UHGV virus genome: UHGV-0077431
Length of the DNA stretch: 41,329 nt
Source of the DNA: a virus
Strand: one strand, 5' to 3'
In this document: one piece after another, positions 6,165-23,356 of the stretch
Layout: each line of letters starts with the position of its first letter
How positions within the stretch are numbered: the stretch's first letter is position 1
The notes under the pieces: generated by a model
What the model saw: the letters and a program-made list of their open reading frames with translations, nothing else
The model's database searches: none
Told to the model about the DNA's origin: nothing
Position numbers and translations under genes: made by a program

Positions 6165-6166
6165 CG

Positions 6167-7276: not shown

Positions 7277-7625
7277 TCCAGGCCTCCAGCTCGTTCTGAA
7301 TCTCTTCGTCTATTTCGTCGTTGCTGGCCTCTTCATTGAGGTAGCTCAGTGCTTCTTTCCTGTACTGCTCACGACGGCTGCTGTCGTACCAAACTGAGAA
7401 TTCTGGAGACCAGCCACGGTCATCGCCGTTTTCAGCAAAAAAATCATGCATTGCGTTGTTATAGGCCAGGCTCTCTACCATGCATTCAGCAGTTGTCAGG
7501 GCGCATTCACGGATATAGCCGCGGAGATCGCGCTTATTCCACCACGGACTCACCTTCGAATCACAAAGGCCTTTGAACTCAACTTCCCAGCGGCGGATAC
7601 AGCGTGCATTTAATGATTTGCTCAT
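7269..7625 (-). CDS. Hypothetical protein with acidic C-terminus
   Basis: ATGA start/stop overlap with neighbour. Confidence 0.55.
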   Translation of the reverse strand: MSKSLNARCIRRWEVEFKGLCDSKVSPWWNKRDLRGYIRECALTTAECMVESLAYNNAMHDFFAENGDDRGWSPEFSVWYDSSRREQYRKEALSYLNEEASNDEIDEEIQNELEAWND

Positions 7626-7939
7626 GCTGCACCGCCTTCAACGTTACGTAACCAGATGCATACCGCGCCATCTTCGGTGTTGTGAATTGAACCGACAAAC
7701 CAACCTTCACCGGCTGGCGATTCTGGCTGCCAGGCTGAAATATCGTAACCATCAACTTCAGGATCGATGTCTTCTTCATCCCGGTAAACTACCGTCCATT
7801 CGAGGCCGTTTTTATCCAGCCAGGCGTTGAACTCATCAGGTGAGATAAATTCACGACCATCGCAAAATTGCTCATAGACGGGGTGAGTCCAGTAGCCGTA
7901 TTGGTCGCGTTCTACTGGTAATGCCGTAAATTTGCTCAT
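7622..7939 (-). CDS. Hypothetical protein
   Basis: ATGA start/stop overlap on both sides. Confidence 0.55.
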   Translation of the reverse strand: MSKFTALPVERDQYGYWTHPVYEQFCDGREFISPDEFNAWLDKNGLEWTVVYRDEEDIDPEVDGYDISAWQPESPAGEGWFVGSIHNTEDGAVCIWLRNVEGGAA

Positions 7940-8190
7940 TGGGCTGCTCCTTTGCGGACGTTTCGCAGAAGCTGGTTAAATATCAGCGTTAAGTTATTGC
8001 TGCATCCAAACGGCAGATCATTGACGCGGTATGTCGGTATCCCACCGCGTGCGCCAGACTTAACAATTCTCCCTGTTGCATAAAGCTGAGATAGTGCGCT
8101 GGCTACGGCTGGCGTCTTTTTACCCATCGCCCTTGCGATTTCACCGCTGGTGGCGTTCGGGTGGCCCTGGAGATATTCAAATACGGTCAT
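7936..8190 (-). CDS. Small winged-helix DNA-binding protein
   Basis: HTH-like segment TSGEIARAMGKKTPAVASALSQL. Confidence 0.5.
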   Translation of the reverse strand: MTVFEYLQGHPNATSGEIARAMGKKTPAVASALSQLYATGRIVKSGARGGIPTYRVNDLPFGCSNNLTLIFNQLLRNVRKGAAQ

Positions 8191-8354
8191 TGCGTTTTAC
8201 CTTTACGTTCCTGTTCCAGTTGCGCCAATGATTCGGTTAATGCTGCGAACGTAGCTTCAAGCCTGGTAGCGACTTCGCGCATAAGCGATGCATGCTTTGG
8301 TGGCAATTCAGCCACGGAGGCAAACGCCTCCGCCACGAGTTCTTTTACCTTCAT
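8187..8354 (-). CDS. Small hypothetical protein (55 aa)
   Basis: ATGA overlaps at both ends; not in ORF track. Confidence 0.4.
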   Translation of the reverse strand: MKVKELVAEAFASVAELPPKHASLMREVATRLEATFAALTESLAQLEQERKGKTQ

Positions 8355-8890
8355 GCGGCGCATTGACGCTGCTCCATCAACTCATTAAAGCGATTTATGA
8401 ACATGCCGTATGACTGGCCTGGACGAACTGGATTGATGATGAATAGGTCCGTCGGGACAACGCCATCGAGGCATGGCCACACGGAACCTTCGTCAATCTC
8501 AAAATCGCGGCGTTCGCTGGCGAGCATCACCAGATCGGCATATTTCACTGTTGGGTGTTGCTCCGTCGGTAGGCCAAATTTCTGGCGAATAGCAGCGTCT
8601 ACGCGAGCTTCGATCACCTGGTAATCCGGTAACAGGCGCTTAAGCGGTGAGGGAATATCTTGCAGGTAGGCTTCGGCGGCATCATGAAGCAGTGCTTCTA
8701 AGGCAAACTCCTGCGGAACGAGATGGCTGGTTAAAACGCTATGCTGGCCGACGCTGTAAAACTCAGGAAGATGCCCAGCAAAACGGCAGATATGAGACAG
8801 CGCAGTAGCAATATCCTCGATGACGATATCGTCCTGTTGGATATCGAGGTAATTAAAGTGTTTGCCGGATAATGTCTGAATGTAGCTCAT
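8351..8890 (-). CDS. HD-domain phosphohydrolase-like protein
   Basis: H...HD...D pattern (SHICRFAGH, LLHDAAEAYLQD); ATG at 8890 has GGAG 7 nt upstream (track start 8917). Confidence 0.6.
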   Translation of the reverse strand: MSYIQTLSGKHFNYLDIQQDDIVIEDIATALSHICRFAGHLPEFYSVGQHSVLTSHLVPQEFALEALLHDAAEAYLQDIPSPLKRLLPDYQVIEARVDAAIRQKFGLPTEQHPTVKYADLVMLASERRDFEIDEGSVWPCLDGVVPTDLFIINPVRPGQSYGMFINRFNELMEQRQCAA

Positions 8891-8998
8891 GGTTTTCTCC
8901 ATATTGGCGCGCTGCACCGCGCCATTAAATTAATGAATTGCTGAATTTAGCGTGCAGCAACCCAACCCATGCTTATGGGGGTAATTGTTGCCTGGTGT

Positions 8999-9916
8999 TT
9001 ATCGCTTGGCTTCGCCGCCGAGAGAGGTTGTTAATCCGTTAATGAGAGAGATAAGCTCGCCGGTCATCAGAACAAAGTCAGCGTCGAACCGCTGAGCCGC
9101 ATCCTCACGGTCGATATCGTCGTTTTGTTCTGTAATCTCATTAGAGAACTTAAGGCGTTTGATGCTGCCGTCATCGCAAAGAACGAACTGAATGCGCTGT
9201 TGCCAGTCGATAGACAGCTTTGTAACTACTTTGCCAGCTTCCAGATGCACATGAATTTCGTCACTGACCAGAGTCTGTTTTTTAAAGCGTCCAATACCGC
9301 CATCTTCAAGAATAGCTTTCAGTTCGGCTTCATCACCCAGGCCAAAGCCAGCAGGCGCACTACCGGAACGAACCCAGTCGGTCATAGTTAGTTCGATCGG
9401 CGTTTCCATAGTCAGCGGTACCACCGGGAGAGAACCGAGAGTTTTACGAAGCAGGGCCAGTGAGTCTTCGGCACGTTTAGCGCTGGCTGCATCAACCATG
9501 ATCAGACCGTCGGTGACGTTGATCCACAAACCAACAGTCGAGTTTTTGGAGAACGCCCGAGGAAGCAGGGAGTGCAACACTTCATCACGCAGCGAATCTT
9601 TCTCAGTTTTTTTGAGGCGACGCCCCTGATCGGATTCCAGACGCGACACACGCTTGCGCAGTTCTTCAGTAATGACAGGAGATGGCAGTATTTTTTCTTC
9701 CCGGCGAATAACCAACAACACTTGATTATTGACAGTGTGATGCAAGCGATCTGACAGCTGACCAAGTGGTGATACCCAACCGGTTTTTGCCATATCCTGG
9801 CTACCGCATGGAGTGAAGCGAAATAGTTCAAGCTGCTGTTCCAGCTCTTCCTGGTTGATGGTGAAATCGCGACTAATGCGATACACCAACATATTTTTGA
9901 AAAACGGATTATTCAT
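8999..9916 (-). CDS. rdgC: Recombination-associated protein RdgC homologue
   Basis: Near full-length similarity to E. coli RdgC as recalled ([42 protein letters not shown]). Confidence 0.85.
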
Positions 9917-10228
9917 TCTCGGTTCCTCAGCGCATCTGCACAGACGCTAAAAAGTTAGTTTCTCCATACACAACAGAGAAGGGCACCTGCATTGGTCGGC
10001 GGCTTGCAGAGACCGCTTTCTTTTTGCCCGGGTGGATTGGGTTATGAGCCCGTCGCCCGGTGATGCCCTTTTCTGTTGTGCCCTGAAAAAGGCTGGCGGT
10101 TACCGGAAATACACGGGAAAACACCGGGCCGCCAGAACAGGGAGTTACTTGTTATTGCTTTAGCCTGCTTTTAACCACATCAGGCGCGGTGGTATCTTGG
10201 TGTTCTCACACAACCAAGAGGGATGTTT

Positions 10229-10426
10229 ATGGGCGCTTTTGATAACCAGGAAATTACGTTACCCGCATGCCCTAAGTGCGGCACTAAGACGAAGAAGAAA
10301 ATCGCTTGGCTCAAGTCGAACAAAAGTTTCACTTGTCGATGTGGAGCTACTATCAATGTCAACAGCAGCCAGCTTACTTCCGAAATCAGGAAGGTTGAGG
10401 ACAAGCTGAAGAAGCTCTTTAAATAG
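10229..10426 (+). CDS. Small C4 zinc-ribbon protein (65 aa)
   Basis: GAGGG 6 nt before ATG; CPKCG...CRCG; followed by intrinsic terminator. Overlaps antisense with 10259..10624. Confidence 0.45.
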   Translation: MGAFDNQEITLPACPKCGTKTKKKIAWLKSNKSFTCRCGATINVNSSQLTSEIRKVEDKLKKLFK

Positions 10427-10624
10427 TTTTTTATCGACTGATATTATTTCGTTATCAGAGGTTGGTTTTTCAGCCTCTGATTTTTTAGTCAGGATCATTT
10501 TTTCTACACATGTGACTACGCATTCCGAACAGATGGCAGGTTCGTCCTTACCACCTTTTGCGACGATCTTTATCGCTCCCAGTTCGGTTGCTCCGCAAAA
10601 TGAGCATGTGAATAAATGATTCAT
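10259..10624 (-). CDS. Small protein with ClpX-type N-terminal zinc-binding domain
   Basis: CSFCG-x7-KIVA-x8-ICSECV-x2-C matches the ClpX ZBD pattern; GAGG 5 nt before ATG at 10624; C-terminal third is antisense to 10229..10426. Confidence 0.5.
   Translation of the reverse strand: MNHLFTCSFCGATELGAIKIVAKGGKDEPAICSECVVTCVEKMILTKKSEAEKPTSDNEIISVDKKLFKELLQLVLNLPDFGSKLAAVDIDSSSTSTSETFVRLEPSDFLLRLSAALRACG
10454..10486 (+). terminator. Intrinsic terminator (ATCAGAGG stem, T6 tract), plus-strand only
   Basis: 8-9 bp stem followed by TTTTTT on plus; A-rich on minus. Confidence 0.7.
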
Positions 10625-10729
10625 GTAAACCTCTACCCCCAACCTAAGTTTTCTGTCAGCGAATCATCCGGTTATTCATATGCCACCGGCGGCTACTTCG
10701 TGGGCGTCCTGCCTGTTCGCTGTTGATGA

Positions 10730-10810
10730 ATACATAATTAACCAATGGCTAATATTTGTAAACAACCAATAGTTAATTTTTGAGTGTTTAGGAATTAACT
10801 CAATGATTTT
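10730..10810. promoter_or_regulatory. oL-like operator/promoter region
   Basis: AT-rich intergenic region with repeated GTTAAT/ATTAAC motifs also present at oR (GTTAATTTTTG at about 10772 versus GTTAATTTTG at 12524). Confidence 0.45.
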
Positions 10811-10880
10811 TAATAAAATACATTTTGTTGTTAAGTGATGACGTGCTTAAAAAAAACACCATCTACAAAAGAGGAGTGTT

Positions 10881-11087
10881 ATGGAACGTGATGATCTGGA
10901 AGAAGACCGCGCAGCGTTCATTGCTGGCGAGATAGGCGGAGTGGTGATTCAGTTAATCATCGAAGGGATCGAAATCAACCGTGATAATATCGTTGAGTAT
11001 CTGGAGGCAAAGCGTCGCGCGGTTGGTAACGTGATCCACAAAGGCTTGCTGAGAGATGCTGCGGAATTTGTGAGGAAAGGGCAATAA
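10881..11087 (+). CDS. Hypothetical protein (68 aa)
   Basis: AGAGGAG 5 nt upstream of ATG; ends at a shared terminator. Confidence 0.55.
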   Translation: MERDDLEEDRAAFIAGEIGGVVIQLIIEGIEINRDNIVEYLEAKRRAVGNVIHKGLLRDAAEFVRKGQ

Positions 11088-11112
11088 AAACCCGACGCGG
11101 TGGTCGGGTTAG
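11088..11112 (-). terminator. Terminator ending the cI operon (CCCGAC stem, U5 tail on minus strand); possibly bidirectional
   Basis: Hairpin cccgac-gcggtg-gtcggg with TTTTT on minus-strand RNA directly after the stop of 11109..11300. Confidence 0.6.
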
Positions 11113-11300
11113 AACAGGAGTTTAACTGCGGCTAGGGTCAGACCTGTGATTGTAAAGATCGCACCAACTATCGACCAAGTCTGAATCCTGAGTTCCTTTT
11201 GTAGGTCTTCTCGTGTCGCGTAATTAGACTTGATAACAGCAACATCAGTCTTAATGGACGCGATATCTACCTCAAGCTGCCTAACTCTTGCTTCAAGCAT
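11109..11300 (-). CDS. Small coiled-coil protein with C-terminal transmembrane helix (63 aa)
   Basis: GGAGGTGA 5 nt before ATG at 11300; heptad-like [23 protein letters not shown] then hydrophobic [22 protein letters not shown]. Track ORF extends to 11423. Confidence 0.55.
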
Positions 11301-11367
11301 ATCATCACCTCCGCCATCTCCGCCTCGTCGTGTTATTGCAGGTAGTTCACTATTAAATGGTACTACA

Positions 11368-11715
11368 TTATTTTGCGGCGTCGGCATTTTTTTCATCTTC
11401 CGTTTTTGCCGGGAATTTTTCATTTACCCAGTTAAGAACTGAAAACGCATTTATATGTGTTTCATTTCCACAATTGTTGCATATTAGTGAAAAGTAATAC
11501 TGGTTAGCAGTATCGGAATAAATGCTTTTTTCAGTAAAAACATTTACATAACTACCAAGCGCCATAGTGCATGGCATTCCAACACTCGCACTGACTTGAG
11601 GCACCGTTAACCTGTCATGCCCACATAGCGTGCATTTTAGATATATATTCTTTTCTGAGAAGTAAGAGACTAACATGTCCATGTTGATCCTTTCGAACCC
11701 CTGTTCACTCGCCAT
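11368..11715 (-). CDS. Cys-rich putative zinc-binding protein (115 aa), first gene downstream of cI
   Basis: CTLCGH ... CNNCGN motifs; GAGGA 8 nt before ATG. Confidence 0.55.
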
Positions 11716-11731
11716 TCACATATCCTCAGAG

Positions 11732-12466
11732 TTAAAGTCGATTATATTTAATTGACTCATGAATCAATGCCTTACCCATGACATAAAGCTGATCCTGATT
11801 CGCCTCATTGATGTACCACTTTTCATATGCAGAGTTATCAGACAGAACAGCGAGCTTGTCACCTTGCATCTGTAGGCGCTTAACATGAAACGTCTTACCG
11901 TATACGAAAGAGTAAACACCGTCGGTCTGGAAGTGACGAACTGAGATGTCGACGAATAGTCGATCACCAGAAACGAGGGTTGGTGACATACTGTCGCCGT
12001 TAACAGTCATGACCTTCACATCTTCTGGATCGCGATTTCCAAAAAGCACTCGGGCATGTTCAGTCGTGAACTCAATGGCGTACAAGACTTCAACATAGTC
12101 AGAAAGCATGTAGGTGCCAGGTCCAGCACTGACAGATAAATCCAGAACTTCAACGCGATAAACATCCTGCTCTGGCTTATTAACCATGCGTTTCACTTCC
12201 CCTGTATCTGTTGGCTCACCAACACCGTATTCCAGCCATTCGGCACGTACACCAAGTACTTTACTGAGAGCCACTATTTTCTGACTGTCCGGTATGGCCT
12301 GGGCGTTGAACCACTTCCAAACTCCAGGTGTAGTGATCTCCACCCCGGCTTTATTAAGCAGGTCTGCAAGGTTTTTGTTTCGTCCCCGACCAGTTAATCC
12401 AGCAAGTTGACAAACTTGCAGCAGCCTAGTCGTGAAACCTTCTTTCGTTTCGTCTCTCTTAACCAT
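11732..12466 (-). CDS. cI: CI-type prophage repressor (HTH + LexA-like S24 peptidase domain)
   Basis: C-terminal VNGDSMSPT...HVKRL (Ser/Lys dyad context); divergent from cro across an operator-rich spacer. Confidence 0.9.
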   Translation of the reverse strand: MVKRDETKEGFTTRLLQVCQLAGLTGRGRNKNLADLLNKAGVEITTPGVWKWFNAQAIPDSQKIVALSKVLGVRAEWLEYGVGEPTDTGEVKRMVNKPEQDVYRVEVLDLSVSAGPGTYMLSDYVEVLYAIEFTTEHARVLFGNRDPEDVKVMTVNGDSMSPTLVSGDRLFVDISVRHFQTDGVYSFVYGKTFHVKRLQMQGDKLAVLSDNSAYEKWYINEANQDQLYVMGKALIHESIKYNRL

Positions 12467-12549
12467 TAGTTAAATATCCGGGAACTTGACTTTGCTGTCA
12501 GTTAATATTTATTATTAACTTGTGGTTAATTTTGTAATCAGGAGAGTCA
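12467..12549. promoter_or_regulatory. oR/pR/pRM-like divergent control region
   Basis: TTGACT (12485-12490) with TTATTA about 17 nt downstream; palindromic GTTAATAtttattATTAAC and GGTTAATTTTG. Confidence 0.6.
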
Positions 12550-12798
12550 ATGAACGCTGTAGAAATTGCAGTAGAAGCTGTCGGTGGACAAACAGCAGCC
12601 GCAAAAATTTGTGGTTTATCCCCGGTAGCTGTTCACCGCTGGGTTAAAAACGCCTGTCTTCCTCGTACCGAATACACAAAAAAAACGGAATACGCGGAGT
12701 TACTTGCTTCTAAATCAGCAGGTCAGTTCACTGCTGACTGGTTGCTGGAAAATGCTAATCCTGATCGTCCAGGAAAGGTTAACGATCCATCAGCTTAA
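12550..12798 (+). CDS. cro: Cro-like repressor (Cro/YdaS family HTH)
   Basis: HTH GGQTAAAKICGLSPVAVHRW; GGAGAG SD; position opposite cI. Confidence 0.75.
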   Translation: MNAVEIAVEAVGGQTAAAKICGLSPVAVHRWVKNACLPRTEYTKKTEYAELLASKSAGQFTADWLLENANPDRPGKVNDPSA

Positions 12799-12826
12799 AC
12801 GTAACCACAGAAATTAGGGGATAACC

Positions 12827-13390
12827 GTGGATAAACAACACTGGAAAGTAGAGCGCCAACCTGCATGGCTGGTGGCTGCAATCAAAAGAACTATTGCCGA
12901 AATGCCAGGCGGTTATACAGAAGCTGCTGAATGGCTTGGCCTGTATCGCGCTGGAAAACTCTCAACGGATGCGCTCTACAACAGACTGCGTAACGAAGGA
13001 GATCAAATTTTCCCGCTTGAGTGGGCGATGGTGCTTCAGGATGCAAGTGGTACTAAGTATGTCACCGATGCGATAGCCCGCCGTAGTGGTGGCGTCTTCG
13101 TTCCGCTGGTGGAGGTTGATGATCTTGATAACGGCGATATCAACCAGCGCCTGATGGAGTCCATCGAATGGATTGGTAAACACTCGCAGTACCTGCGTAA
13201 GGCAACCGCTGACGGGGTTATTGATCCGGCAGAACGTGAGCAGATTGAAGAGAACAGCTATCAGGTGATGGCTAAGTGGCAGGAACATTTGACGCTGCTT
13301 TTCCGTGTGTTTTGTGCGCCGGAAAAAGGTGACGCCCGCGAGTGTGCAGCTCCGGGCGTCGTGGCAGACAAATCTTGTATGGAGAAGTAA
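12827..13390 (+). CDS. CII-like regulatory protein (YdaT-like)
   Basis: Position after cro; GTG start with GGGGA SD; family call from memory only. Confidence 0.55.
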   Translation: MDKQHWKVERQPAWLVAAIKRTIAEMPGGYTEAAEWLGLYRAGKLSTDALYNRLRNEGDQIFPLEWAMVLQDASGTKYVTDAIARRSGGVFVPLVEVDDLDNGDINQRLMESIEWIGKHSQYLRKATADGVIDPAEREQIEENSYQVMAKWQEHLTLLFRVFCAPEKGDARECAAPGVVADKSCMEK

Positions 13391-13562
13391 TCCGCATGAC
13401 CAGTTTAACGGCTTTTAACCGTTTACCGCAACTCAGGATGATCCCGGTACCGGGCGCTCCGTTGTTTCGGTATGAACGCAGAATAGCAAACCGCTGGGTG
13501 CCATGTAACCACAGTCGGGCGGTCGCAATTGTGGGGGTTTACTACAGGAAGGCGAAACGCTT

Positions 13563-13736
13563 ATGCGCGAAGTTAACCGAAGGTTCAAAGACCACAGAGG
13601 GATCCCCGTTCGGGTTATCCGGTGGGAGCCTGAAACGCGGCGTGTTATCTACCTGCGAGCAGGGTATGAGCACGAATGCTTCAGCCCACTTGAGCATTTC
13701 AGGCAAAAGTTCAGGGAGATAGAGGATGAGAGCTAA
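13563..13736 (+). CDS. Small hypothetical protein (57 aa, MREVNRRFKDHRGIPVRVIRWEPETRRVIY...)
   Basis: ATG with AGGAAGG upstream; protein-like composition; not in ORF track. Confidence 0.45.
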   Translation: MREVNRRFKDHRGIPVRVIRWEPETRRVIYLRAGYEHECFSPLEHFRQKFREIEDES

Positions 13737-13764
13737 CCCAATGAAAAAAAACTTAACTGAGAAT

Positions 13765-14145
13765 TTATCCTGCCAGGGCATTAATCCTCAATTTGATAGC
13801 CTTTTCTTCAACTTTGAACCTCTTTTTCAGGTCTTCGAGTTCTTTGGCGAGAGCAATGTATTGATCCGCAACTCCATATTGAGCAATCAGTCCGGTTGCC
13901 AGTTTAGCATCGGCGTTTTCTGGATCATCAACATCGATGATTTTTCCATATTTTCCGGTAATAACGGCAATACGGTGCTTGCACATCGTGCCCATTTCAC
14001 CAGCAATGCAAGTGCATTCTATTTCGAGGTTACCGCTCTGATCGCTGATGGTTACATCGTAAAAACCATCACCGCTGCTGCTGTTAGCCAAAAGTTGGTA
14101 GATCACGTTGTATCTCCTTATTTTTTTGTAGCGGTTAACGCTCAT
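13765..14145 (-). CDS. SWIM-type zinc-finger protein (126 aa) with C-terminal coiled coil
   Basis: CxCx(n)CxH motif (ECTCIAGEMGTMCKHR); GAGGT 5 nt before ATG at 14145; opposite orientation to flanking genes. Confidence 0.6.
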   Translation of the reverse strand: MSVNRYKKIRRYNVIYQLLANSSSGDGFYDVTISDQSGNLEIECTCIAGEMGTMCKHRIAVITGKYGKIIDVDDPENADAKLATGLIAQYGVADQYIALAKELEDLKKRFKVEEKAIKLRINALAG

Positions 14146-14436
14146 CCCAACCTCATTATTGATCATGCTTTATTCCAGGTATACACTGTCTCGGCAGCGG
14201 CAAAATCCGTTGCCGGGATTGGCGTCCTGGAATTGATTAAAGAGCACAACCGCGCTCTGGCGGTTTTTTTGTGCGAAATGCATTGCTACACCCTGATTAT
14301 GGTGGGGCGTGCAGGGGCATCGAAAGATGCGCCGGCTTCTTTAGTCACCGGTTACGCCAACCCTGCACGTCTCACCACCAATGAGATTGGCGTCTCTTGT
14401 GGTGAGTTGTTAAAACTGACTAAAGAGGCAGCCATC

Positions 14437-14982
14437 ATGGCTACGATCCCAACCCTCGTTCAACCTGAAATTTCCGTAATTAACGGTCAGGCCGTTACCT
14501 CCTCTCTGGCTATTGCCGACTTCTTCACTAAGCGTCACGATGACGTACTGAAAAAAATCCGCGCTCTGGAGTGTTCGCTAGAATTCACTGCCCGCAATTT
14601 TGCGGTGAGTGAATACACCGACGCTACAGGCCGCAAACTTCCCTGCTATCAAATCACCCGCGATGGCTTCGCGTTCCTCGCTATGGGCTTCACTGGTAAG
14701 CGAGCAGCACAGTTCAAAGAGGCATACATCACAGCCTTCAACAGGATGGAAAATGCGCTTCACGGGGCAAGTGATAATTTCTGCGCAGCGCACAATGCCC
14801 ACGTTGTTTACCTCTACATGTCTGAAATTCACCGCGTCTGGTTAGAACAACTTTATCCGATGTTGGTTTCTGTTCAGTCTCCGCTAGCTTCATCACTCTA
14901 CGACTACATCAACGATGGTGTATTCGTTGCTGGGTTGGTGGACTCGGAACTGAACAAAAAGCACAAGGAGGTGCGAAAGTGA
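14437..14982 (+). CDS. Rha-family phage regulatory protein
   Basis: N-terminal motif NGQAVTSSLAIADFFTKRHDDVLKKI; AAAGAGG 8 nt before ATG. Confidence 0.7.
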   Translation: MATIPTLVQPEISVINGQAVTSSLAIADFFTKRHDDVLKKIRALECSLEFTARNFAVSEYTDATGRKLPCYQITRDGFAFLAMGFTGKRAAQFKEAYITAFNRMENALHGASDNFCAAHNAHVVYLYMSEIHRVWLEQLYPMLVSVQSPLASSLYDYINDGVFVAGLVDSELNKKHKEVRK

Positions 14983-15845
14983 GCACTAAATTAACCGGCT
15001 ACGTATGGGATGGTTGCGCGGCGTCGGGCATGAAGTTGTCTAGTGTCGCGATCATGGCTCGCCTCGCTGATTTCAGCAGCGATGAGGGCGTGTGCTGGCC
15101 GTCCATTGAAACTATTGCTCGCCAGCTTGGCGCAGGGCCTAGCACGATCAGAACGGCAATCGCAAAGCTTGAAAAAGATGGCTGGCTCACGCGTACACAG
15201 CGCCGTAATGGTAACCGTAATGCGTCGAACGTGTACCGCCTGAATGTAGCGAAACTTCAGGCTGCCGCATTTTCTCAACTGTCAGATTCTGACACGTCAA
15301 AATCTGACGCATCAAAATTTGACGCCTCAAAAACTGACCCGTCGAAATCCGTCAAAAACGGCGGTTTTGACCCGTCAGAATCTGGCGGGGATCCGTCAGT
15401 AAAATCAAAACAAGATCCACAAGTAACTTCAAAACCCTCTTGTCCGGTTGCTGCGCAACCAGACCCTGAGGTTGTGATTACTGATCAGGCCAGACAGGTC
15501 TTGTCTTACCTGAACCAGACAACTGGCTCACGCTACCAGGTATGCAGTACGTCGCTGGAGAATATTCGCGCCCGTCTTCGGGAACAATTCACGGTTGATG
15601 ACCTGTGCCTGGTAGTGGATTACAAAAATGCCGATTGGCGTGATAGCGAGCAGGCGCAATACCTCCGCCCGGCAACTCTGTTCATTCCAAAAAACTTCCC
15701 TGGTTACCTGCAAAGCGCGACCAAATGGTCCAGTGCTGGCCGGCCTGAACGCGTTAACGGCAAATGGGAGACTAACTCAGCCAGCCGCGCAAACTTCCAG
15801 AGTGTTGATTACTCACTGCCAGAAAATTCGGGGTTCCGTTCATGA
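14979..15845 (+). CDS. Replication initiation protein (O-like; N-terminal winged helix, acidic Ser-rich linker, conserved phage C-terminal domain)
   Basis: GTG start with AAGGAGGTG at spacing 5, overlapping Rha stop; iterons inside the coding sequence. Confidence 0.75.
   Translation: MSTKLTGYVWDGCAASGMKLSSVAIMARLADFSSDEGVCWPSIETIARQLGAGPSTIRTAIAKLEKDGWLTRTQRRNGNRNASNVYRLNVAKLQAAAFSQLSDSDTSKSDASKFDASKTDPSKSVKNGGFDPSESGGDPSVKSKQDPQVTSKPSCPVAAQPDPEVVITDQARQVLSYLNQTTGSRYQVCSTSLENIRARLREQFTVDDLCLVVDYKNADWRDSEQAQYLRPATLFIPKNFPGYLQSATKWSSAGRPERVNGKWETNSASRANFQSVDYSLPENSGFRS
15290..15381. repeat. Iteron array (about six 13-mers TGACnCnTCAAAA at 15 bp periodicity) with adjacent A/T-rich tract: candidate origin
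   Basis: Direct repeats tgacacgtcaaaa, tgacgcatcaaaa, tgacgcctcaaaa, tgacccgtcgaaa, tgacccgtcagaa; A-rich 15395-15440. Confidence 0.6.
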
Positions 15846-16069
15846 TGACCAATAAATATTGCCAGGCGCTGGCGGCACTGCGTAGCAAACCAGCTCACGA
15901 ATTGAAAGAAGTTGGCGATCAGTGGCGGACACCGGATCTGCTTTTTTGGGGGATCAACGCGCTATTTGGTCCATTAGTTCTGAACTTGTTCGCAATATGC
16001 GGGGAGAGGCCGCGTGAAACTGGTCCTGCCTTTTCCTCCGAGCGTGAACACTTACTGGCGCGCCCCTAA
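15842..16069 (+). CDS. Short ORF (75 aa), possibly a truncated remnant (N-terminal WRTPDLLF motif reminiscent of phage Dam-family methyltransferases)
   Basis: ATGA overlap with replication gene stop; 3' end overlaps rusA by 56 nt. Confidence 0.3.
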   Translation: MMTNKYCQALAALRSKPAHELKEVGDQWRTPDLLFWGINALFGPLVLNLFAICGERPRETGPAFSSEREHLLARP

Positions 16070-16400
16070 CAAGGGGCCGCTGGCCGGTCGTCACCTCATT
16101 AGCGCTGATGGTCGTAAATACCAGAGCGCTGCCTGCGTGGCGATCATTGAGCAATTACGACGTCTCCCGAAGCCATCGACTGAACTGGCAGCGGTAGAAA
16201 TCACTCTGTACCCGCCGGATGCGCGCCATCGGGATATCGATAATTACAACAAAGCCCTGTTTGACGCGCTGACGCATGCGGGTGTCTGGGAAGACGACAG
16301 CCAGATTAAGCGCATGCTGGTGGAATGGGGGCCAGTGGTGCCGAAAGGAAAGGTTGAAATAACGATCAGCATTTACGAACCGGCGGGTGCAGCCGCCTGA
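16014..16400 (+). CDS. rusA: Holliday-junction resolvase RusA
   Basis: RusA pattern (LPFPPSVNTYW, RHRDIDNYNKALFDALTHAGVWEDDSQI); GTG start with GGAGAGG SD. Confidence 0.8.
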   Translation: MKLVLPFPPSVNTYWRAPNKGPLAGRHLISADGRKYQSAACVAIIEQLRRLPKPSTELAAVEITLYPPDARHRDIDNYNKALFDALTHAGVWEDDSQIKRMLVEWGPVVPKGKVEITISIYEPAGAAA

Positions 16401-16414
16401 TATGGAGAAATAGC

Positions 16415-17107
16415 ATGAATCAGTTAACCGCAAAGGGTGTTGTGACAATGTCCAGCCGTGAAATTGCCAGGCTGGTGCAGAGCAAACATGGTGATGTGAA
16501 GCGCTCAGCTGAGCGCCTTGAATCTGCTGGTATTTTAACCGCGCCGTTGGCGCACACCCCCTACGAACACCCGCAAAATGGGCAAACATACGAGGAGTAT
16601 TGGTTCAACAAACGTGATTCTCTGGTGATCGTTGCCAGGATGTCGCCAGAATTTACCGCCGCCGTTGTCGATCGCTGGCAGGAGCTGGAGAACAGTCAGG
16701 CCGTCAGTGTGCCACAAACATTGCCGGAGGCATTACGCCTCGCGGCTGATCTGGCCGAGCAGAAAGAACAACTCAGCCAGCAGTTAGCCGCTGCTGCACC
16801 GAAAGTTGAATTTGTCGATCGGTACTGTACTGCCAAAGGCTCAATGTCATTCCGCCAGGTAGCAAAGCTATTGCAGGCTAAAGAAACAGATTTCCGCTTG
16901 TTCCTCATTGAGAGCGACATCTTGTACCGGCTAGGCGGAGTGCTGACACCGCGGCACCAGCATATTGCGGCCGGGCGGTTTGAAGTGAAAACCGGCACTA
17001 CGAGTGAAACAAACTACGCATTCAGCCAGGCGCGTTTTACGCCCAAAGGCATCGAGTGGATCGGCGGCCTGTGGACGGCACACATCGCTAAGGGGCATGC
17101 CGCGTGA
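16415..17107 (+). CDS. Phage antirepressor (AntA/Rha-like N-terminus, KilA-C/ANT-like C-terminus)
   Basis: N-terminal VVTMSSREIARLVQSKHGDVKR; C-terminal FRQVAKLLQAKETDFRLFLIESDILY. Confidence 0.65.
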   Translation: MNQLTAKGVVTMSSREIARLVQSKHGDVKRSAERLESAGILTAPLAHTPYEHPQNGQTYEEYWFNKRDSLVIVARMSPEFTAAVVDRWQELENSQAVSVPQTLPEALRLAADLAEQKEQLSQQLAAAAPKVEFVDRYCTAKGSMSFRQVAKLLQAKETDFRLFLIESDILYRLGGVLTPRHQHIAAGRFEVKTGTTSETNYAFSQARFTPKGIEWIGGLWTAHIAKGHAA

Positions 17108-18165
17108 GAGGACTGTTTACAGCCGAGACTGTTCCGCGCCTGGGGCTTGTGCTGTTAAAGCCAGGTAGCGATCTGATGTCTCTGTTCCAGCAGGGGCGTG
17201 TGCTGGTGGAGCCTCAGCCAAAAAGTATGGCTGGGCTTCCGTCGGGGCTGGTCCCTGATGCGAGGCAGCCGCTGGCAGAAGATAAATCCCTCGAGGAATT
17301 CTTCACCGACGAGAGGGTTATCCGCGCCGCAGGCGGTTTATCCGCGTTGGACTCATGGTTAGAGCGCAACGTTAAGGAATGCCAGTACCCGCACGCTGAC
17401 TACCACCATCGCGAGCTGGTAACAATGCGCCACCCCCCAGGGTCAATGCTGCTCTGCTGGCATTGCGATAACCAGCTGCGCGAGCAGACCACCGCGGCGC
17501 TGGCAGAACTGGCCCGGCGAAATCTCATCAACTGGCTGATCAATTCGATCCTGTCTGCGCTTGGCTACAACACCGAGCGCGAACTATCCCTCGGTGAATT
17601 GTGCTGGTGGGCCGTTTATTCAGGCATTGCTGATGCAATCACGGAAAGGATGGCCCAGCATGCGCTTCGCTTACCGGATGAGCCGTTTTTATCCGTATAT
17701 CGAGAAAGTGACATTGTGCCGATGCCCCCTGCAAAAAGCATTTTGCAGAAGAAGGCCACCCCTGCGGTCACGGCTGCGAAATTAAAGCATGGAGCAAATC
17801 AGGAAGTGGCCTATGACCAGCCAAAGGTTCTGGCTCTGCATGCGGATCCTGAATCCCCTGAATCATTCATGTTGCGTCCAAAACACCGCAGGTGGGTGAA
17901 TGAGGACTATACCCGGTGGGTTAAAACCCAGCCCTGTGAAGGTTGCCGGCGGCCAGCGGATGATCCACACCATGTCATTGGTCACGGCATGGGCGGTACC
18001 GCCACTAAAGCCCACGATTTGTTCGTGATCCCTCTGTGCAGAGAGTGTCACGACAAATTACATGCTGATGTTGCAGCGTTCGAGAAAAAACACGGTACCC
18101 AGCTGGAGCTGCTATTCCGGTTTATGAATCGAGCGGTGGCGATCGGCGTAATAACAAAAGCGTAA
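17104..18165 (+). CDS. DUF968-like prophage protein with HNH-like C-terminal Cys/His motif
   Basis: C-terminal HHVIGHGMGGTATKAHDLFVIPLCRECHDKLH; GTGA overlap with upstream gene. Confidence 0.55.
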   Translation: MRGLFTAETVPRLGLVLLKPGSDLMSLFQQGRVLVEPQPKSMAGLPSGLVPDARQPLAEDKSLEEFFTDERVIRAAGGLSALDSWLERNVKECQYPHADYHHRELVTMRHPPGSMLLCWHCDNQLREQTTAALAELARRNLINWLINSILSALGYNTERELSLGELCWWAVYSGIADAITERMAQHALRLPDEPFLSVYRESDIVPMPPAKSILQKKATPAVTAAKLKHGANQEVAYDQPKVLALHADPESPESFMLRPKHRRWVNEDYTRWVKTQPCEGCRRPADDPHHVIGHGMGGTATKAHDLFVIPLCRECHDKLHADVAAFEKKHGTQLELLFRFMNRAVAIGVITKA

Positions 18166-18186
18166 TTGTATGGAGCGCTGAGCATA

Positions 18187-18879
18187 ATGAATTTACAAGA
18201 ACTGGAATTTACGCGGATTGAACTGCGCCGCGCGCTGGCGGATTTATCAGGCTCGACAAAAGGACAGCTGCAGGCGTTCAGTGAGCATCCACCAGCAGAT
18301 AAGAATAAATACCCCCGGCACCATCCTGAAATCGTCATGGAGGGTGGGGAAGGTTGTGGGTCAAAGGTTGTAACAACGCTGGCCACTCCATTTTATGTTC
18401 TTGAGACAAGGAGCCGTCGTCGACCTTTGCCGCCTATTAAAGATACGGAGTTCGCTTGTTCAGCATGGCGTCGTTCGGTCAATGGTCTGGGTGAGCATTT
18501 GCAGGCATGGGTGCGGTACTGCTATGGGTATGACCTTACTTTCCGGTACCAGACATTGATGTGCCAGCACGTGTGGGAACAGTTTCAGCGTCAGCATAGC
18601 GGCAAAAAAATACAGGGCCGCGTCACTAAAAAACTGGTAGGGCTTGTCTGGCTGGCGGCGCAAGAAGTTGCTGCCTCGCGTAATAACGATACCTATCAGG
18701 AGTATGCTGGTGCAGCTCTGGCGCGCATGGTCAGCGTTGAGCGTTCCACCTGGCTCAGAGTGTATTCAGGCCACTGGGCGGCTTTCAAAGCGTCGTTTGC
18801 TGAAATGGATAGCCAGGCACTAAGCGAAATTTTGTCACGGTACGAAGAGTACCAAGAACTGAAAGTGGCGGAAATGTGA
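18187..18879 (+). CDS. Putative late-gene antiterminator (Q-like)
   Basis: Last gene before the late promoter/terminator and lysis cassette; family call is positional. Track start is TTG at 18166. Confidence 0.5.
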   Translation: MNLQELEFTRIELRRALADLSGSTKGQLQAFSEHPPADKNKYPRHHPEIVMEGGEGCGSKVVTTLATPFYVLETRSRRRPLPPIKDTEFACSAWRRSVNGLGEHLQAWVRYCYGYDLTFRYQTLMCQHVWEQFQRQHSGKKIQGRVTKKLVGLVWLAAQEVAASRNNDTYQEYAGAALARMVSVERSTWLRVYSGHWAAFKASFAEMDSQALSEILSRYEEYQELKVAEM

Positions 18880-18904
18880 GGTAACTTTCACTAACTCCCT
18901 CAAA

Positions 18905-18970
18905 TGGGCTTGCAAAATGCAACAAAATGAGCCATATTTGAAGCTAATTTTATATTTTGTCATAATTATA
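18905..18970 (+). promoter_or_regulatory. Late promoter region (pR'-like) with candidate qut sequence
   Basis: TTGCAA (18910-18915) and CATATT about 17 nt later; alternative TTGAAG/CATAAT. Confidence 0.4.
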
Positions 18971-18975
18971 TCTAA

Positions 18976-18998
18976 CCTCGCCTCGGCGGGGTTTTTTT
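18976..18998 (+). terminator. Intrinsic terminator (tR'-like)
   Basis: CCTCGC-ctcg-GCGGGG stem followed by T7. Confidence 0.7.
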
Positions 18999-19077
18999 AT
19001 GCCTTTTGTATCTAAAGCTTGATGCAAAAATGAACCAGAGTTATCTGTGTGTCACACGATAAAAAAGGGGAAAAGGC

Positions 19078-19269
19078 ATGCAAAATCAACCTTATATGAC
19101 AGAAGAAGCAAAAGCGGTTTTTAACGAACTCAGCGCTTCACCAGCGACAGCTGGGGAAATTGCACAGAATACGCACCTAAGCCGAGAGAAATGCCAGCTC
19201 ATCCTGACGCAGCTGGTTATGGCGGGGTTATCAGATTACCAGTTTGGATGTTACAAACGCCTCCACTGA
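19078..19269 (+). CDS. Small winged-helix-like protein (63 aa)
   Basis: AAGGGGAAAAGG upstream of ATG. Confidence 0.5.
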   Translation: MQNQPYMTEEAKAVFNELSASPATAGEIAQNTHLSREKCQLILTQLVMAGLSDYQFGCYKRLH

Positions 19270-19419
19270 AGGGGGCATTCTGCTGTGGAAATGGGCGGCT
19301 GGTGGGTGTTGTAGCACCCAACCAGCCATTAGCTCATGCTTTCAGGTCACAAGCTAACCAAGGCCCACTGCTTTAGCGCAAAAGCATAGTGAGCCTATCA
19401 GAGTTACGCTTACGGATCT

Positions 19420-20472
19420 ATGAAAAATACTGTAAATATAAACAGTGTTGAGCTTATCAACGCTGACTGCCTGCAATACCTCGCTACCCTCCCAGATAAC
19501 ACCATCGACCTTATTGTTACGGATCCGCCTTATTTTAAGGTGAAGCCGAACGGCTGGGATAATCAGTGGAACGGTGACGCCGACTATCTTCGATGGCTTG
19601 ATATGTGTCTTGCCCAGTTCTGGCGAGTGCTTAAGCCTGCCGGCAGCCTGTATTTGTTTTCAGGTCACCGACTTGCATCCGATATTGAGATCATGATGCG
19701 TGAACGCTTCAACGTTATGAACCACATTATCTGGGCGAAGCCATCAGGGCGTTGGAACGGTTGTAATAAAGAAAGCCTGCGCTCTTACTTCCCCGCGACG
19801 GAACGCATCCTTTTCGCTGAGCATTATCAGGGGCCATATAATCCGAAAAGCGACGGATTTGCTGAGAAAAGCAACGAGGTCAAACAGCACGTCATGGCTC
19901 CGTTAATCACCTACTTTCGTGATGCACGAGCCGAACTGGGGGTCACGTCCAGGCAAATAGCTGACGCCACCGGAAAGAAAAATATGGCGTCTCACTGGTT
20001 CGGTACCAGTCAGTGGCAACTACCAAACGAGCAGGATTACGAAAAGCTGCAGGAATTGTTCACTCAGATCGCCATTGAGAAGCACCGCGCCTCTGAACTC
20101 AAAGCACCGCATCACCAGCTGGTGGCCACATGGCATTCGTTGAACCGGAAATACCTTGATCTGCTGGAAGAGTACAAATCTCTTCGGCGGCATTTCTCTG
20201 TGACAGTAGCCGTGCCCTATACAGACGTCTGGACACATAAACCCGTCCAGTTCTATCCAGGCAAACACCCGTGCGAAAAGCCCGCTGATATGTTGCGGCA
20301 AATCATCAACGCCAGCAGCAGGCCCGGCGATGTGGTAGCTGATTTCTTTATGGGCTCGGGATCAACTGTTAAAGCAGCCATTGAACTGGGCCGCCAGGCT
20401 ATCGGCGTAGAACTGGAAGAGGAACGTTTCAACCAGACGGTAAGTGAGGTAAGGCAGCTGGCAGGGGAATAA
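19420..20472 (+). CDS. DNA methyltransferase, beta-class amino-MTase (N6-adenine or N4-cytosine), orphan
   Basis: N-terminal DPPY motif (IVTDPPYF), C-terminal FxGxG AdoMet motif (FFMGSGST); no endonuclease gene adjacent. Confidence 0.85.
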   Translation: MKNTVNINSVELINADCLQYLATLPDNTIDLIVTDPPYFKVKPNGWDNQWNGDADYLRWLDMCLAQFWRVLKPAGSLYLFSGHRLASDIEIMMRERFNVMNHIIWAKPSGRWNGCNKESLRSYFPATERILFAEHYQGPYNPKSDGFAEKSNEVKQHVMAPLITYFRDARAELGVTSRQIADATGKKNMASHWFGTSQWQLPNEQDYEKLQELFTQIAIEKHRASELKAPHHQLVATWHSLNRKYLDLLEEYKSLRRHFSVTVAVPYTDVWTHKPVQFYPGKHPCEKPADMLRQIINASSRPGDVVADFFMGSGSTVKAAIELGRQAIGVELEEERFNQTVSEVRQLAGE

Positions 20473-20542
20473 AAGCTTGGGTCGCTATCGCGGCCCTTTT
20501 TATTACCTCAACTGGACACCCGCAACGTAGCGAGGTGAGAGC

Positions 20543-20758
20543 ATGTATCGAATGGAAAAAATCACGACGGGTATTGCATACGGCGCATCGGGTGGGGGGA
20601 CCGGATACTGGTTGCTTCAGCTCCTCGATAAAGTCTCCCCATCTCAATGGGCGGCCATTGGTGTGCTCGGTAGCCTCATGTTTGGTTTGCTGACGTGGTT
20701 AACGAGTCTGTACTTCCAAATCAAAGCGGATCGCCGCAAAGCTGCGCGAGGTGAATGA
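20543..20758 (+). CDS. Holin (phage 21 S-type pinholin), dual-start motif
   Basis: Similarity to S21 as recalled ([30 protein letters not shown]); Met1 and Met4 starts. Confidence 0.85.
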
Positions 20759-21294
20759 TGTCGAACAAAGCAAAGCTCAGCGTAGCAGTGCTGGCGCTAA
20801 TCGCGTCAGGGGCTTCTGCTCCACTCATTTTTGACCAATTCATCAGCGAGAAAGAAGGCAATGCGCTGGTGGCCGTTGTTGATCCGGGTGGGGTCTGGTC
20901 TTTATGTCACGGCGTGACCGTTATCGATGGCAGGCGTGTTGTTAAAGGCATGACGGCCACTGAGGAACAATGCCGGAAGGTTAACGCTATTGAACGCGAT
21001 AAGGCATTAGCCTGGGTTGATCGCAATATCAAAGTGCCTCTGACAGAGCCTCAGAAGGTGGGTATCGCATCCTTCTGCCCGTATAACATCGGCCCCGGTA
21101 AATGCTTCCCATCGACCTTCTATAAGCGCATCAACGCAGGTGACCGCATCGGTGCATGCGAGGCAATCCGCTGGTGGATTAAAGACGGTGGCCGTGATTG
21201 TCGTCTAACCAAAGGCCAGAAGAATGGCTGCTATGGCCAGGTTGAGCGACGGGACCAGGAAAGCGCGCTGGCGTGCTGGGGGCTGGACCAATGA
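20755..21294 (+). CDS. SAR endolysin (T4-lysozyme-type muramidase with N-terminal signal-anchor-release domain)
   Basis: Hydrophobic Gly/Ala-rich N-terminus; E-x8-D-x5-T catalytic pattern ([22 protein letters not shown]); ATGA overlap with holin. Confidence 0.9.
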
Positions 21295-21806
21295 AAATTA
21301 ATCCGGGTCTTATCGGCGTTGTCGTTATTGCTGGCCTTTCCGTCGCTCTCGTTAAGAGCTGCTCCGACGCCAGTAGCCTACAGAGCGATAACGACGTTCT
21401 GCGAAGTGACAACTCTATGCAGGGGCAGGTGATCGCCACCCAGGCATTCAACTTCAATCGATTCAATCAGGTTGCAGAACATGCCAACAGGCTTAACTCC
21501 CTGATCGACACCAGCACCGAAGAAACCGTAATTGAATACCGGGAGATACTCCGCCGTGAAAAAACCTGTGATCTGCCTGTTCCTGCTGACATTGCTGGTG
21601 GGCTGCTCGAATACGCGTACCGTTTACGTTCCAGCGCAATGCACGCCGATACCGACGGAATTAACGCAGCCGATGATAGTACCGCTGCCGCCGGCTCAAT
21701 AACGTACTGCCAGGCTGTGCTCTGGATTAAGCCGCTGCTGGCCGTGATTGAAAAGGGCAATAACAATTTCGCTGGAATTCGTCAAATAGAGAGCGAGCGT
21801 CAATAG
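21291..21806 (+). CDS. Rz i-spanin
   Basis: N-terminal TM helix, ATGA overlap with endolysin stop, embedded +1-frame lipoprotein ORF. Confidence 0.8.
   Translation: MKINPGLIGVVVIAGLSVALVKSCSDASSLQSDNDVLRSDNSMQGQVIATQAFNFNRFNQVAEHANRLNSLIDTSTEETVIEYREILRREKTCDLPVPADIAGGLLEYAYRLRSSAMHADTDGINAADDSTAAAGSITYCQAVLWIKPLLAVIEKGNNNFAGIRQIESERQ
21556..21702 (+). CDS. Rz1 o-spanin lipoprotein embedded within Rz
   Basis: MKKPVICLFLLTLLVGCSN (lipobox LVGC) then Pro-rich; GTG start; not in ORF track. Confidence 0.65.
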   Translation: MKKPVICLFLLTLLVGCSNTRTVYVPAQCTPIPTELTQPMIVPLPPAQ

Positions 21807-21807
21807 T

Positions 21808-21856
21808 CTTTATCCCTAGCAAGGGATAAAGCAACCATTATCCCCGCTAAGGGATA
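21808..21856. promoter_or_regulatory. Pair of inverted repeats sharing TATCCC/GGGATA half-sites (candidate operator)
   Basis: CTTTATCCCT-agca-AGGGATAAAG (21808-21831) and TATCCC-n6-GGGATA (21839-21856); no flanking T tract. Confidence 0.3.
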
Positions 21857-21913
21857 GGCGTTACAGCAGACACTCACCTAATGCCTGTTGCCATTCAGCC
21901 AAGGAGCCAGCCT

Positions 21914-22159
21914 ATGAAAAAAGTTAAAGTTACAATTGCTCACCTTGAAGAGCACTACGAGGGTATTGTTCGAGCCGCAAACGTCACATTCCAGGTTATT
22001 CAGAATGAAAGTGTGATAGTGAAGGATTCTTTATCCGGTAAAGCTTCCCATCCCTTCACTAAAATTTACGCTGTCGATGTTGATGAATCAGCTGTACATG
22101 TGATGCATGATCGGCCTGATTTGAGCTGGTTAACAATTACAGCAGAGCTTGTTGAATAG
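21914..22159 (+). CDS. Hypothetical protein (81 aa)
   Basis: AGGAG 8 nt before ATG; track ORF starts at 21881. Confidence 0.55.
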   Translation: MKKVKVTIAHLEEHYEGIVRAANVTFQVIQNESVIVKDSLSGKASHPFTKIYAVDVDESAVHVMHDRPDLSWLTITAELVE

Positions 22160-22218
22160 TATTTATTTTGCAGCTTCAATTGCTTAGCATTATCTCCGGG
22201 TACCCAAAGGAGATAAAT

Positions 22219-22440
22219 ATGTTTGTTGCAGAAGGCTTGAAGCCTGACCTTGATAATATAGGTTGGGTTATGGGGTGGGGGGTTGTAAGGAATGCCCCGT
22301 GGCATTTAGTCGGTGTTTACGCCACCAAAGATGTGGCCGAAACTAAGGCAGCCTCACTAGGTGAGGGCTATGAAGCCCATTATGGCTCACATCGGTTAGG
22401 CTCTGACGACTTCATCCACCACAACTTCACGCGCAGTTAA
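22219..22440 (+). CDS. Hypothetical protein (73 aa)
   Basis: AAAGGAG SD; followed by terminator. Confidence 0.55.
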   Translation: MFVAEGLKPDLDNIGWVMGWGVVRNAPWHLVGVYATKDVAETKAASLGEGYEAHYGSHRLGSDDFIHHNFTRS

Positions 22441-22462
22441 CAAAAGAAGTTGTTCGATATTT

Positions 22463-22488
22463 AGCCTCGCTTATGCGGGGCTTTTTTA
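22463..22488 (+). terminator. Intrinsic terminator
   Basis: AGCCTCGC-ttat-GCGGGGCT stem followed by T6. Confidence 0.7.
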
Positions 22489-22600
22489 TGCGCATCGCAC
22501 GCGCACACCGTAGAAAGTCTTTCAGTTGTGAGCCTGGGCAAACCGTTAACTTTCGGCGGCTTTGCCGTGCGACAGGCTCACGCCTAAAAGGAAATAAATC

Positions 22601-23068
22601 ATGGGTCATAAAATTATCACGTTGTCCGGCGCGGCGACGGATGTTCTGTATGCGCTGTTTTTCCGTGGCGCGCTTCAGTCTGGTGATCTGCCAGCCAAAT
22701 CTGGTGCTGCTGAGCTTCTAGAGCTGGGATTCGCTGAAACACGCCATACCGCGACGGAGTATCAAAAGGAAAATTATTACACCTTCCTGACCGCTGAAGG
22801 GCAGGAGTTCGCCATTAAGCACCTGGTGAATACGCGCTTTGGTGTTCCTGCTGGTGGTTATATTGGTGGCTCTGTAAATATTCAGTTTGGCCGGATAGAG
22901 AACGACCCACGAAAAGGCTATGCCATCAATGTTGGCATCTGTCCCGAAATTAAGACCGGCGTGAAGCTATCCCCTGAAATGGTAAAAGCGATCTCAGATG
23001 TTGTGTCCGAGGAACTGAAGAAGAGTCTTCGGCCAGGTGGCACGATATGGTCAGCGCTGTCGCGATGA
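22601..23068 (+). CDS. Hypothetical protein (155 aa), last gene before cos
   Basis: AAAAGGA SD; nested inverted repeats in the 5' leader (22530-22581). Confidence 0.55.
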   Translation: MGHKIITLSGAATDVLYALFFRGALQSGDLPAKSGAAELLELGFAETRHTATEYQKENYYTFLTAEGQEFAIKHLVNTRFGVPAGGYIGGSVNIQFGRIENDPRKGYAINVGICPEIKTGVKLSPEMVKAISDVVSEELKKSLRPGGTIWSALSR

Positions 23069-23139
23069 ATGGACGTTTAGACGTCCAAATGGGTGCGAAT
23101 CAAGTCGCATTCCCGCAAATGATAATCATTATCATTTGC

Positions 23140-23356
23140 GGGTCCTTTCCGGCGATCCGCCTTGTTACGGGGCGGCGTCCGCGCAGATTCTCGCTATTTA
23201 TGAAAATTTTCTGGTTTATGCCATTTCCGTTCTTCTTCTTGTTTACTCATTGTTTTTGTTAAAAACGTCCTCTCTCCAGAAAGGAAATGCTGAGCAAGGA
23301 AAACGGAAGTTTACCGTTGATTGTTTCCTTTCTCTGTTTTTTGCCAGGAGTAAGCC
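23140..23356. other. cos packaging site (cosN around 23170-23181 plus cosB)
   Basis: Strong identity to my recollection of lambda cos (GGGCGGCG..., CTCGCTATTTATGAAAATTTTC, TTTCCGTTCTTCTTC) directly upstream of the Nu1 homologue. Confidence 0.8.

Follow-up and report, generated by a model that had tools for sequence, protein, structure and literature searches.

Sequence evidence for a methylase gene remnant, left by a repeat-flanked deletion, in an O-only prophage replication module

What lies between the replication initiator gene and rusA in the E. coli prophage genome UHGV-0077431, and was a helicase-loader gene lost there? In the 41,329-nt stretch of DNA that was analyzed (hereafter, the window), the initiator gene is followed by an ORF of only 75 codons and then directly by rusA. 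A first-pass annotation made from the sequence alone took the short ORF for a remnant, proposed a deletion, and suggested that the prophage, which it found to lack a P/DnaC-like or helicase gene, may depend on host factors or be replication-defective. The features at the locus are as follows.

14979-15845, + strand: replication initiator ORF, 288 aa, directly upstream of the remnant ORF
15842-16069, + strand: remnant ORF, 75 codons
15842-15993, + strand: retained 5' part of an N6-adenine methyltransferase gene (alignment to E. coli 1943)
15978-15993: deletion junction, one hybrid copy of the 16-nt direct repeat TTCTGAACTTGTTCGC
15994-16017, + strand: retained last methylase codons (..NMRGEAA*), in the wrong frame (three-way alignment and translation)
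16014-16400, + strand: rusA, Holliday-junction resolvase, GTG start, 128 aa, intact (Pfam RusA)

Methylase origin of the 75-codon ORF

The sequence facts reported for the short ORF were all confirmed. Its ATG (15842-15844) shares the tetranucleotide ATGA with the TGA of the initiator gene (15843-15845), its 3' end covers the first 56 nt of rusA (16069-16014+1), and the motif WRTPDLLF occupies residues 28-35, within the only Pfam match of the ORF. A length of 75 codons is by itself within chance, given that this 8-kb stretch is overlapped by 62 ORFs of 40 aa or more; the ORF is considered real because of homology, its DNA being 97.7%-99% identical to an intact gene in relatives. A promoter and terminator scan of positions 13300-16600 revealed nothing convincing within the remnant ORF. 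The downstream gene encodes a full-length RusA domain (PF05866, profile positions 1-123 of 124, E = 3.3e-15, Pfam), is 86% identical in DNA to ST64B sb45, and keeps a GGAGAGG Shine-Dalgarno-like sequence upstream.

Residues 19-52 of the 75-aa product match positions 3-36 of the 169-position PF05869 Dam profile (E = 5.5e-6). The score, 26.6 bits, is below the gathering cut-off of 28.1 bits, as expected for a fragment of 51 residues. In PHROGs, residues 1-51 match phrog_111, "DNA methyltransferase" (E = 2.5e-14). By BLASTP, the same residues share 98% identity with the E. coli 1943 methylase (439 aa) and 84% with LLS gp45, and no alignment to either protein continues past residue 51. Hence the earlier reading of the short ORF as the remnant of a Dam-type phage methylase N terminus is borne out. 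The intact E. coli 1943 enzyme carries its Dam domain at residues 19-200 (E = 6e-43), and intact relatives have the full domain over the same residues (profile positions 3-168, E about 1e-43); the GNPPYS motif of the intact methylase lies downstream of residue 51. The remnant therefore has the conserved N-terminal W-x-T-P-x-x-L/F block of PF05869 but not the complete catalytic domain (~169 positions with (D/N)PPY), as homology stops at residue 51.

We also compared the remnant with individual PF05869 methylases: WP_096035032.1 of E. coli 1943, WP_001704140.1 of Nissle 1917, LLS gp45, ST64B Sb44 and SfII gp43. They share with it the place directly 3' of the initiator gene, the ATGA coupling and the W-R-T-P-D-L-L-F block. 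In contrast to them, the remnant has lost NPPY and everything downstream, and has 24 foreign residues appended. Judged by its sequence, ORF 15842-16069 is a pseudogene, left from a phage gene for an N6-adenine DNA methyltransferase; it is a gene fragment derived from PF05869 and not a member of the family, and its predicted product cannot have methylase activity. Among the lambdoid phages of E. coli, Citrobacter and Salmonella that make up this group, the methylase gene is normally found between the initiator gene and rusA. Databases already list the 75-aa product as a methyltransferase; the annotation of the ORF should read truncated N6-adenine methyltransferase pseudogene.

In the intact methylases of E. 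coli 1943 and Nissle 1917 (439 aa each), the Dam domain is followed by a C-terminal extension of ~240 aa without a Pfam match. Other relatives encode methylases of 217-297 aa (SfII, LLS, C3728 and ST64B) or about 444 aa (ECONIH4 and Eeyore). With versions of 217-297, 439 and about 444 aa among relatives, the methylase gene is itself modular.

The 1144-bp deletion and its recurrence

When complete E. coli genomes were searched, E. coli 1943 and Nissle 1917 matched window positions 15500-15993 at 98%-99.6% identity. In both, a "phage N-6-adenine-methyltransferase" gene (L003 6343-7662 in the E. coli 1943 locus and L017 6342-7661 in the Nissle 1917 locus; 439 aa) follows that of a "conserved phage C-terminal domain-containing protein," as upstream in the window. 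Window positions 14980-15993 align to L003 5481-6494 with 97.7% identity (99.0% over window 15700-15993), and window positions 15978-16366 align to L003 7623-8011 with 96.4% identity. The left and right alignments share exactly 16 nt in the window and sit 1144 bp apart in L003. E. coli 1943 has direct repeats at these two points, TTCTGGACTTGTTTGC at L003 6479 (left) and TTCTGAACTTGTTCGC at L003 7623 (right); the corresponding TTCTGGACTTGTTTGC and TTCTGAACTTGTTCGC copies of Nissle 1917 are at L017 6478 and 7622, with equal 1144-bp spacing. A deletion, as previously proposed, is thus present: relative to both alleles, which are independent of each other, 1144 bp are missing, with 16-nt repeats at both ends. 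The DNA match to phage phiNP spans the initiator gene and ends at window position 15993, inside the annotated N-6-adenine-methyltransferase gene of phiNP, and the match to ST64B begins at ~15997, just 5' of ST64B rusA.

Because 1144 = 3 x 381 + 1, the reading frame shifts after residue 51. Codons 52-75 of the remnant (ICGERPRETGPAFSSEREHLLARP) result from reading the 3' end of the methylase gene, and then the first 56 nt of rusA, in a shifted frame. The first-pass annotation had allowed that the ORF might instead be a conserved full-length small protein; with its last 24 residues read out of frame, it is not. In the intact alleles, the methylase TGA overlaps the rusA GTG (GTGA coupling). This coupling is lost in the window, and rusA must therefore rely on its own GGAGAGG Shine-Dalgarno sequence.

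The allele arose by a single 1144-bp deletion between the two imperfect 16-nt direct repeats, for which we propose replication slippage or microhomology-mediated recombination as the mechanism. The deletion took away codons 52 to about 432, and with them the NPPY motif, most of the Dam domain and the ~240-aa extension. Translation coupled to the initiator would shift frame past residue 51, add 24 unrelated residues and stop 56 nt into rusA. The stub would be translated to a non-functional peptide, and translation of rusA may be altered. The consequence to be expected is the loss of phage-encoded adenine methylation, and nothing else.

The deletion allele recurs. An identical junction and 75-aa product are present in at least eight other assemblies (ENA, NCBI, Logan and IMG/VR), and 129 blocks of a public assembly index list a protein identical to this product. 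The product was read on contigs from ENA metagenomes, in the NCBI genome GCA_902847425.1 and in Logan; a 35-nt junction string was also found in an IMG/VR contig. In all seven loci fetched, the junction is identical, and from cI through the remnant there are no substitutions relative to the window (100% identity). Differences start inside rusA (L005 and L010) or in DUF968/Q (L006, L008 and L009), and the left arm differs in two of the fetched loci. With the flanks differing from rusA or from DUF968/Q onward, the comparisons show that the module, with a single and evidently recent deletion allele, has passed into several mosaic backgrounds. Since no substitutions separate any of the recovered copies, selection on the remnant (neutral decay versus constraint) cannot be read from them. 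The 90% protein cluster of the 75-aa product has two members, one of which is named a DNA N-6-adenine-methyltransferase fragment by its source. A search for the exact junction in a species-representative genome collection gave no match. The deletion allele was likewise absent from the complete E. coli genomes of the collection, where no place covered at least 80% of the query.

The replication module and its relatives

The initiator has two domains joined by a Ser/Asp/Lys-rich linker: an N-terminal winged-helix HTH_36 domain (E = 8e-12) and a C-terminal Phg_2220_C domain (PF09524, E = 1.3e-25). PHROGs returned "primosomal protein" (E = 3e-81) and "replication initiation protein" (E = 9e-65). 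Over its full length, the initiator is 73% identical to phiNP Rep and 69% identical to LLS gp44. Its residues 1-162 are 82% identical to those of SfIV gp41, and its C-terminal domain is 59% identical to that of the mEp390 initiator. Repeats lie within the linker-encoding part of the gene.

15288-15349: putative origin iterons, four tandem 15-bp units, consensus TCTGACGCGTCAAAA (Tandem Repeats Finder)
15365-15384: inverted iteron copy, in the initiator linker

Tandem Repeats Finder gave a period of 15, 4.1 copies and a score of 75, and the repeats belong to families D1 and I1-I3. The 15-bp iterons (TCTGACGCNTCAAAA) encode the SKSDASKFDASK-type linker of the initiator. The iterons at 15288-15384 are probably the replication origin, with binding of the initiator predicted. 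A DnaA-box scan of positions 14900-16100 found no site, so a DnaA-assisted origin is unsupported.

The module resembles the lambda O/P module in having an N-terminal DNA-binding domain, iterons in the initiator's own linker, and a place after cII. It differs in that the initiator has no match to the lambda O family in Pfam, has Phg_2220_C as its C-terminal domain and draws weaker "replication initiation O-like" families in PHROGs, and in that no P gene comes next, either in the window or in intact relatives. Hence, of the marks of an O+P-type module, an initiator with internal iterons is found and an adjacent loader or helicase gene is not. A Pfam scan of the larger ORFs from the integrase to the lysis genes, plus four late genes, revealed no helicase, DnaC/P-type loader or primase, in agreement with the first-pass annotation. 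The gene order after the initiator in relatives is as follows.

E. coli 1943, C3728 and Nissle 1917: methylase, rusA, antirepressor (an ORF6N protein in 1943), DUF968, Q
E. coli ECONIH4 (same site, next to yejO): methylase, second methylase (frameshifted), Ant, DUF968, Q
phiNP (Citrobacter phage): two methylases, Q; no loader
LLS: putative methylase, antirepressor, HNH protein, Q; no loader

None of the four intact E. coli relatives has a loader or helicase gene, and the ECONIH4 module has no rusA either. In E. coli 1943 and Nissle 1917, with flanks 98%-99% identical to those of the window, the methylase alone stands between the initiator and rusA. mEp390 and Eeyore, with the same initiator C-terminal domain as the window, also have no loader; nor do SfII, SfIV, PhiR49_1 and ST64B, with which the N-terminal HTH domain is shared. 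Since intact relatives and isolated phages alike are without a loader, its absence is a family trait and not a lesion.

Modules of this kind have been described. Zheng, Casjens, Davidson, Amundsen and Smith (2025, PMC12315714) found only an O homologue in 34 of 314 enterobacterial lambdoid phages, and stated that the replication of O-only phages "is not yet understood," the helicase-loading step included. The window has an initiator homologous to those of experimentally grown O-only phages (LLS gp44 and phiNP Rep). As in the O-only module of LLS (PMC12315714), a single initiator is followed by a methylase, an antirepressor, DUF968/HNH and Q, with no helicase or loader and with many Chi sites in the correct orientation. 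Unlike LLS, the window has rusA and a Rha/Ash gene, absent from LLS at these positions, and its methylase is truncated. By sequence comparison, the window module belongs to the published O-only class and not to the O+P type; it is nothing new in kind, this module type being already in the literature (PMC12315714).

By analogy with LLS, the initiator would bind its own internal iterons, and host proteins would supply the helicase and its loading; an O-only module would have to depend on host DnaB and its loading machinery. We tentatively consider two routes, which taken together we hold to be possible but not probable. The Phg_2220_C domain, possibly DnaD-like, might recruit host DnaB (with DnaC) to the iterons on its own, replacing lambda P, or late replication might use host helicase loading at RecBCD/Chi-generated D-loops. 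The latter would fit the Chi-rich genome. A DnaD_N match (E = 2.4e-4, Pfam) and a phrog_186 match (E = 9e-7), both weak, fall in the N-terminal domain. An AlphaFold2 model of the initiator, built on a shallow alignment (12 sequences, 82%-93% identical), had a mean pLDDT of 47 and a pTM of 0.33. As this model is too poor for a fold search, the DnaD-like idea stems only from the weak DnaD_N and phrog_186 matches. PDB sequence searches (protein and profile) returned only MarR/PaaX-type winged helices for the N-terminal domain and no match for the C-terminal domain.

The initiators of SfII, SfIV and PhiR49_1 (L012-L014) have their first 162 residues and the linker part with the iterons in common with the window, and ST64B Sb42 (L002) shares the HTH_36 domain type only. 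The C-terminal regions of these four initiators are unrelated, without a Phg_2220_C match. Comparison of initiator sequences suggests domain swapping within one-gene replication modules.

We conclude, with a probability of about 93%, that the short ORF is a methylase remnant left by a 1144-bp repeat-flanked deletion, that no replication gene was lost, and that the module is of the O-only type. Of this reading, observation establishes the homology, where the deletion begins and ends, the frameshift, the gene order of the relatives and the recurrence of the junction. That the deletion instead removed a P/DnaC-like loader or a helicase, leaving a prophage that is replication-defective or helper-dependent, is very unlikely. 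A genuine deletion does sit directly after the initiator, and no helicase or loader family was detected among the scanned ORFs. However, a single methylase ORF accounts for the full 1144 bp in the relatives with near-identical flanks, so a loader is not what the deletion removed. Moreover, plaque-forming phiNP, LLS and mEp390 have the same initiator type and no loader, and SfIV, with which only the N-terminal domain is shared, has no loader in its annotated replication region either; the O-only count cited above points the same way. Plaques of phiNP form on E. coli K-12, and its spontaneous release amounts to 1e6-1e8 PFU/ml (PMC6456863); SfIV has been induced by UV and propagated through plaques (PMC3851460). 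The label "replication-defective" is therefore unsupported. The first-pass annotation had itself named a shared gene order in related functional phages as evidence against its suggestion, and such a loader-less order is what they have. For Nissle 1917, no induction was reported for "prophage 3" (PMC5987069), which is not established as the prophage that holds the intact allele and so carries no weight here.

We give as little credence to a functional 75-aa product, whether a neo-functionalised methylase fragment or a read-through over the rusA start selected to throttle RusA. Its ATGA coupling to the initiator is kept, so that it is probably translated, and the allele is widespread, in several mosaic backgrounds. 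Yet residues 52-75 come from reading, in the +1 frame, DNA that in relatives codes for other proteins, and there is no family of full-length homologues beyond the two-member cluster, itself part-named methyltransferase. The copies are identical over ~4 kb of flanks, and their spread is that of a young hitch-hiking allele, not conservation. An assembly collapse between the 16-nt repeats is almost certainly not the source of the missing 1.1 kb: the junction does lie within a short direct repeat, but an imperfect repeat of 16 nt is far too short for collapse, and the same junction occurs in independent assemblies (the ENA metagenomes, GCA_902847425.1, Logan and IMG/VR).

A missing P/DnaC-like gene should hence not be scored as a defect when such prophages are judged for intactness. 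One-gene modules are a recognised lambdoid class, about 11% of the 314-phage panel, and the question of how they replicate belongs to the class and not to the deletion. The naturally methylase-less allele offers a minimal module for studying one-gene replication.

Dispensability of the methylase and other prophage features

In mEp390, the initiator gene is followed by a small repressor-like gene and rusA, with no methylase, and SfIV lacks the methylase that the SfII/SfV module has (PMC3851460). Both mEp390 (NC_019721) and SfIV (NC_022749) have been isolated as phages, and in both the single initiator gene is not followed by a Dam-type methylase gene. They differ from the window in that no remnant ORF marks the absence of the methylase, whose place is taken by a small LexA-like repressor gene; SfIV differs further in its initiator C-terminal domain. 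The deletion in the window has reached a state that is functionally like that of mEp390 and SfIV. As the junction occurs in at least eight other assemblies and in several mosaics, the deletion probably cost a dispensable methylase and not replication. The methylase between the initiator and rusA thus appears dispensable, for this prophage by extension from its relatives, and the deletion is one more natural example of this.

The prophage is not methylase-less after the deletion, because a second methyltransferase gene is intact.

19420-20472: second DNA methyltransferase, PF01555 N6_N4_Mtase, 350 aa, intact, flanked by the Q antiterminator gene and the lysis genes

Hosts of the species E. coli are Dam+, and such a host should tolerate the loss of phage-encoded methylation. 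Were the missing enzyme specific for GATC, as other PF05869 members are, a Dam+ host would mask its absence.

Other features of the prophage were recorded. An ORF of 418 codons (13726-14982, + strand) matches Phage_ASH at residues 153-247 and Phage_pRha at residues 258-343. Its first ~150 codons have no match, and opposite them lies an ORF of 133 aa (13765-14166, - strand) with a SWIM zinc-finger match (E = 7e-6). The true ash/rha start probably lies within ORF 13726-14982, and the SWIM ORF on the other strand may have been inserted as a gene of its own. At 2838-3775, the host autotransporter gene yejO is separated from the phage integrase gene by a gene pair encoding an XRE-type HTH protein and an ImmA/IrrE M78 metallopeptidase; E. 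coli ECONIH4 has this pair at the same site.

The Chi octamer GCTGGTGG occurs 15 times at window positions 5604-25473, compared with 1.55 occurrences expected from shuffles. Fourteen of the 15 sites are on the + strand, and 12 lie between 12868 and 25473, in a cluster that extends from the early-right operon to slightly beyond the cos/terminase region. This richness in Chi fits the "no Rec module, Chi-rich, O-only" lambdoid class of LLS (PMC12315714).
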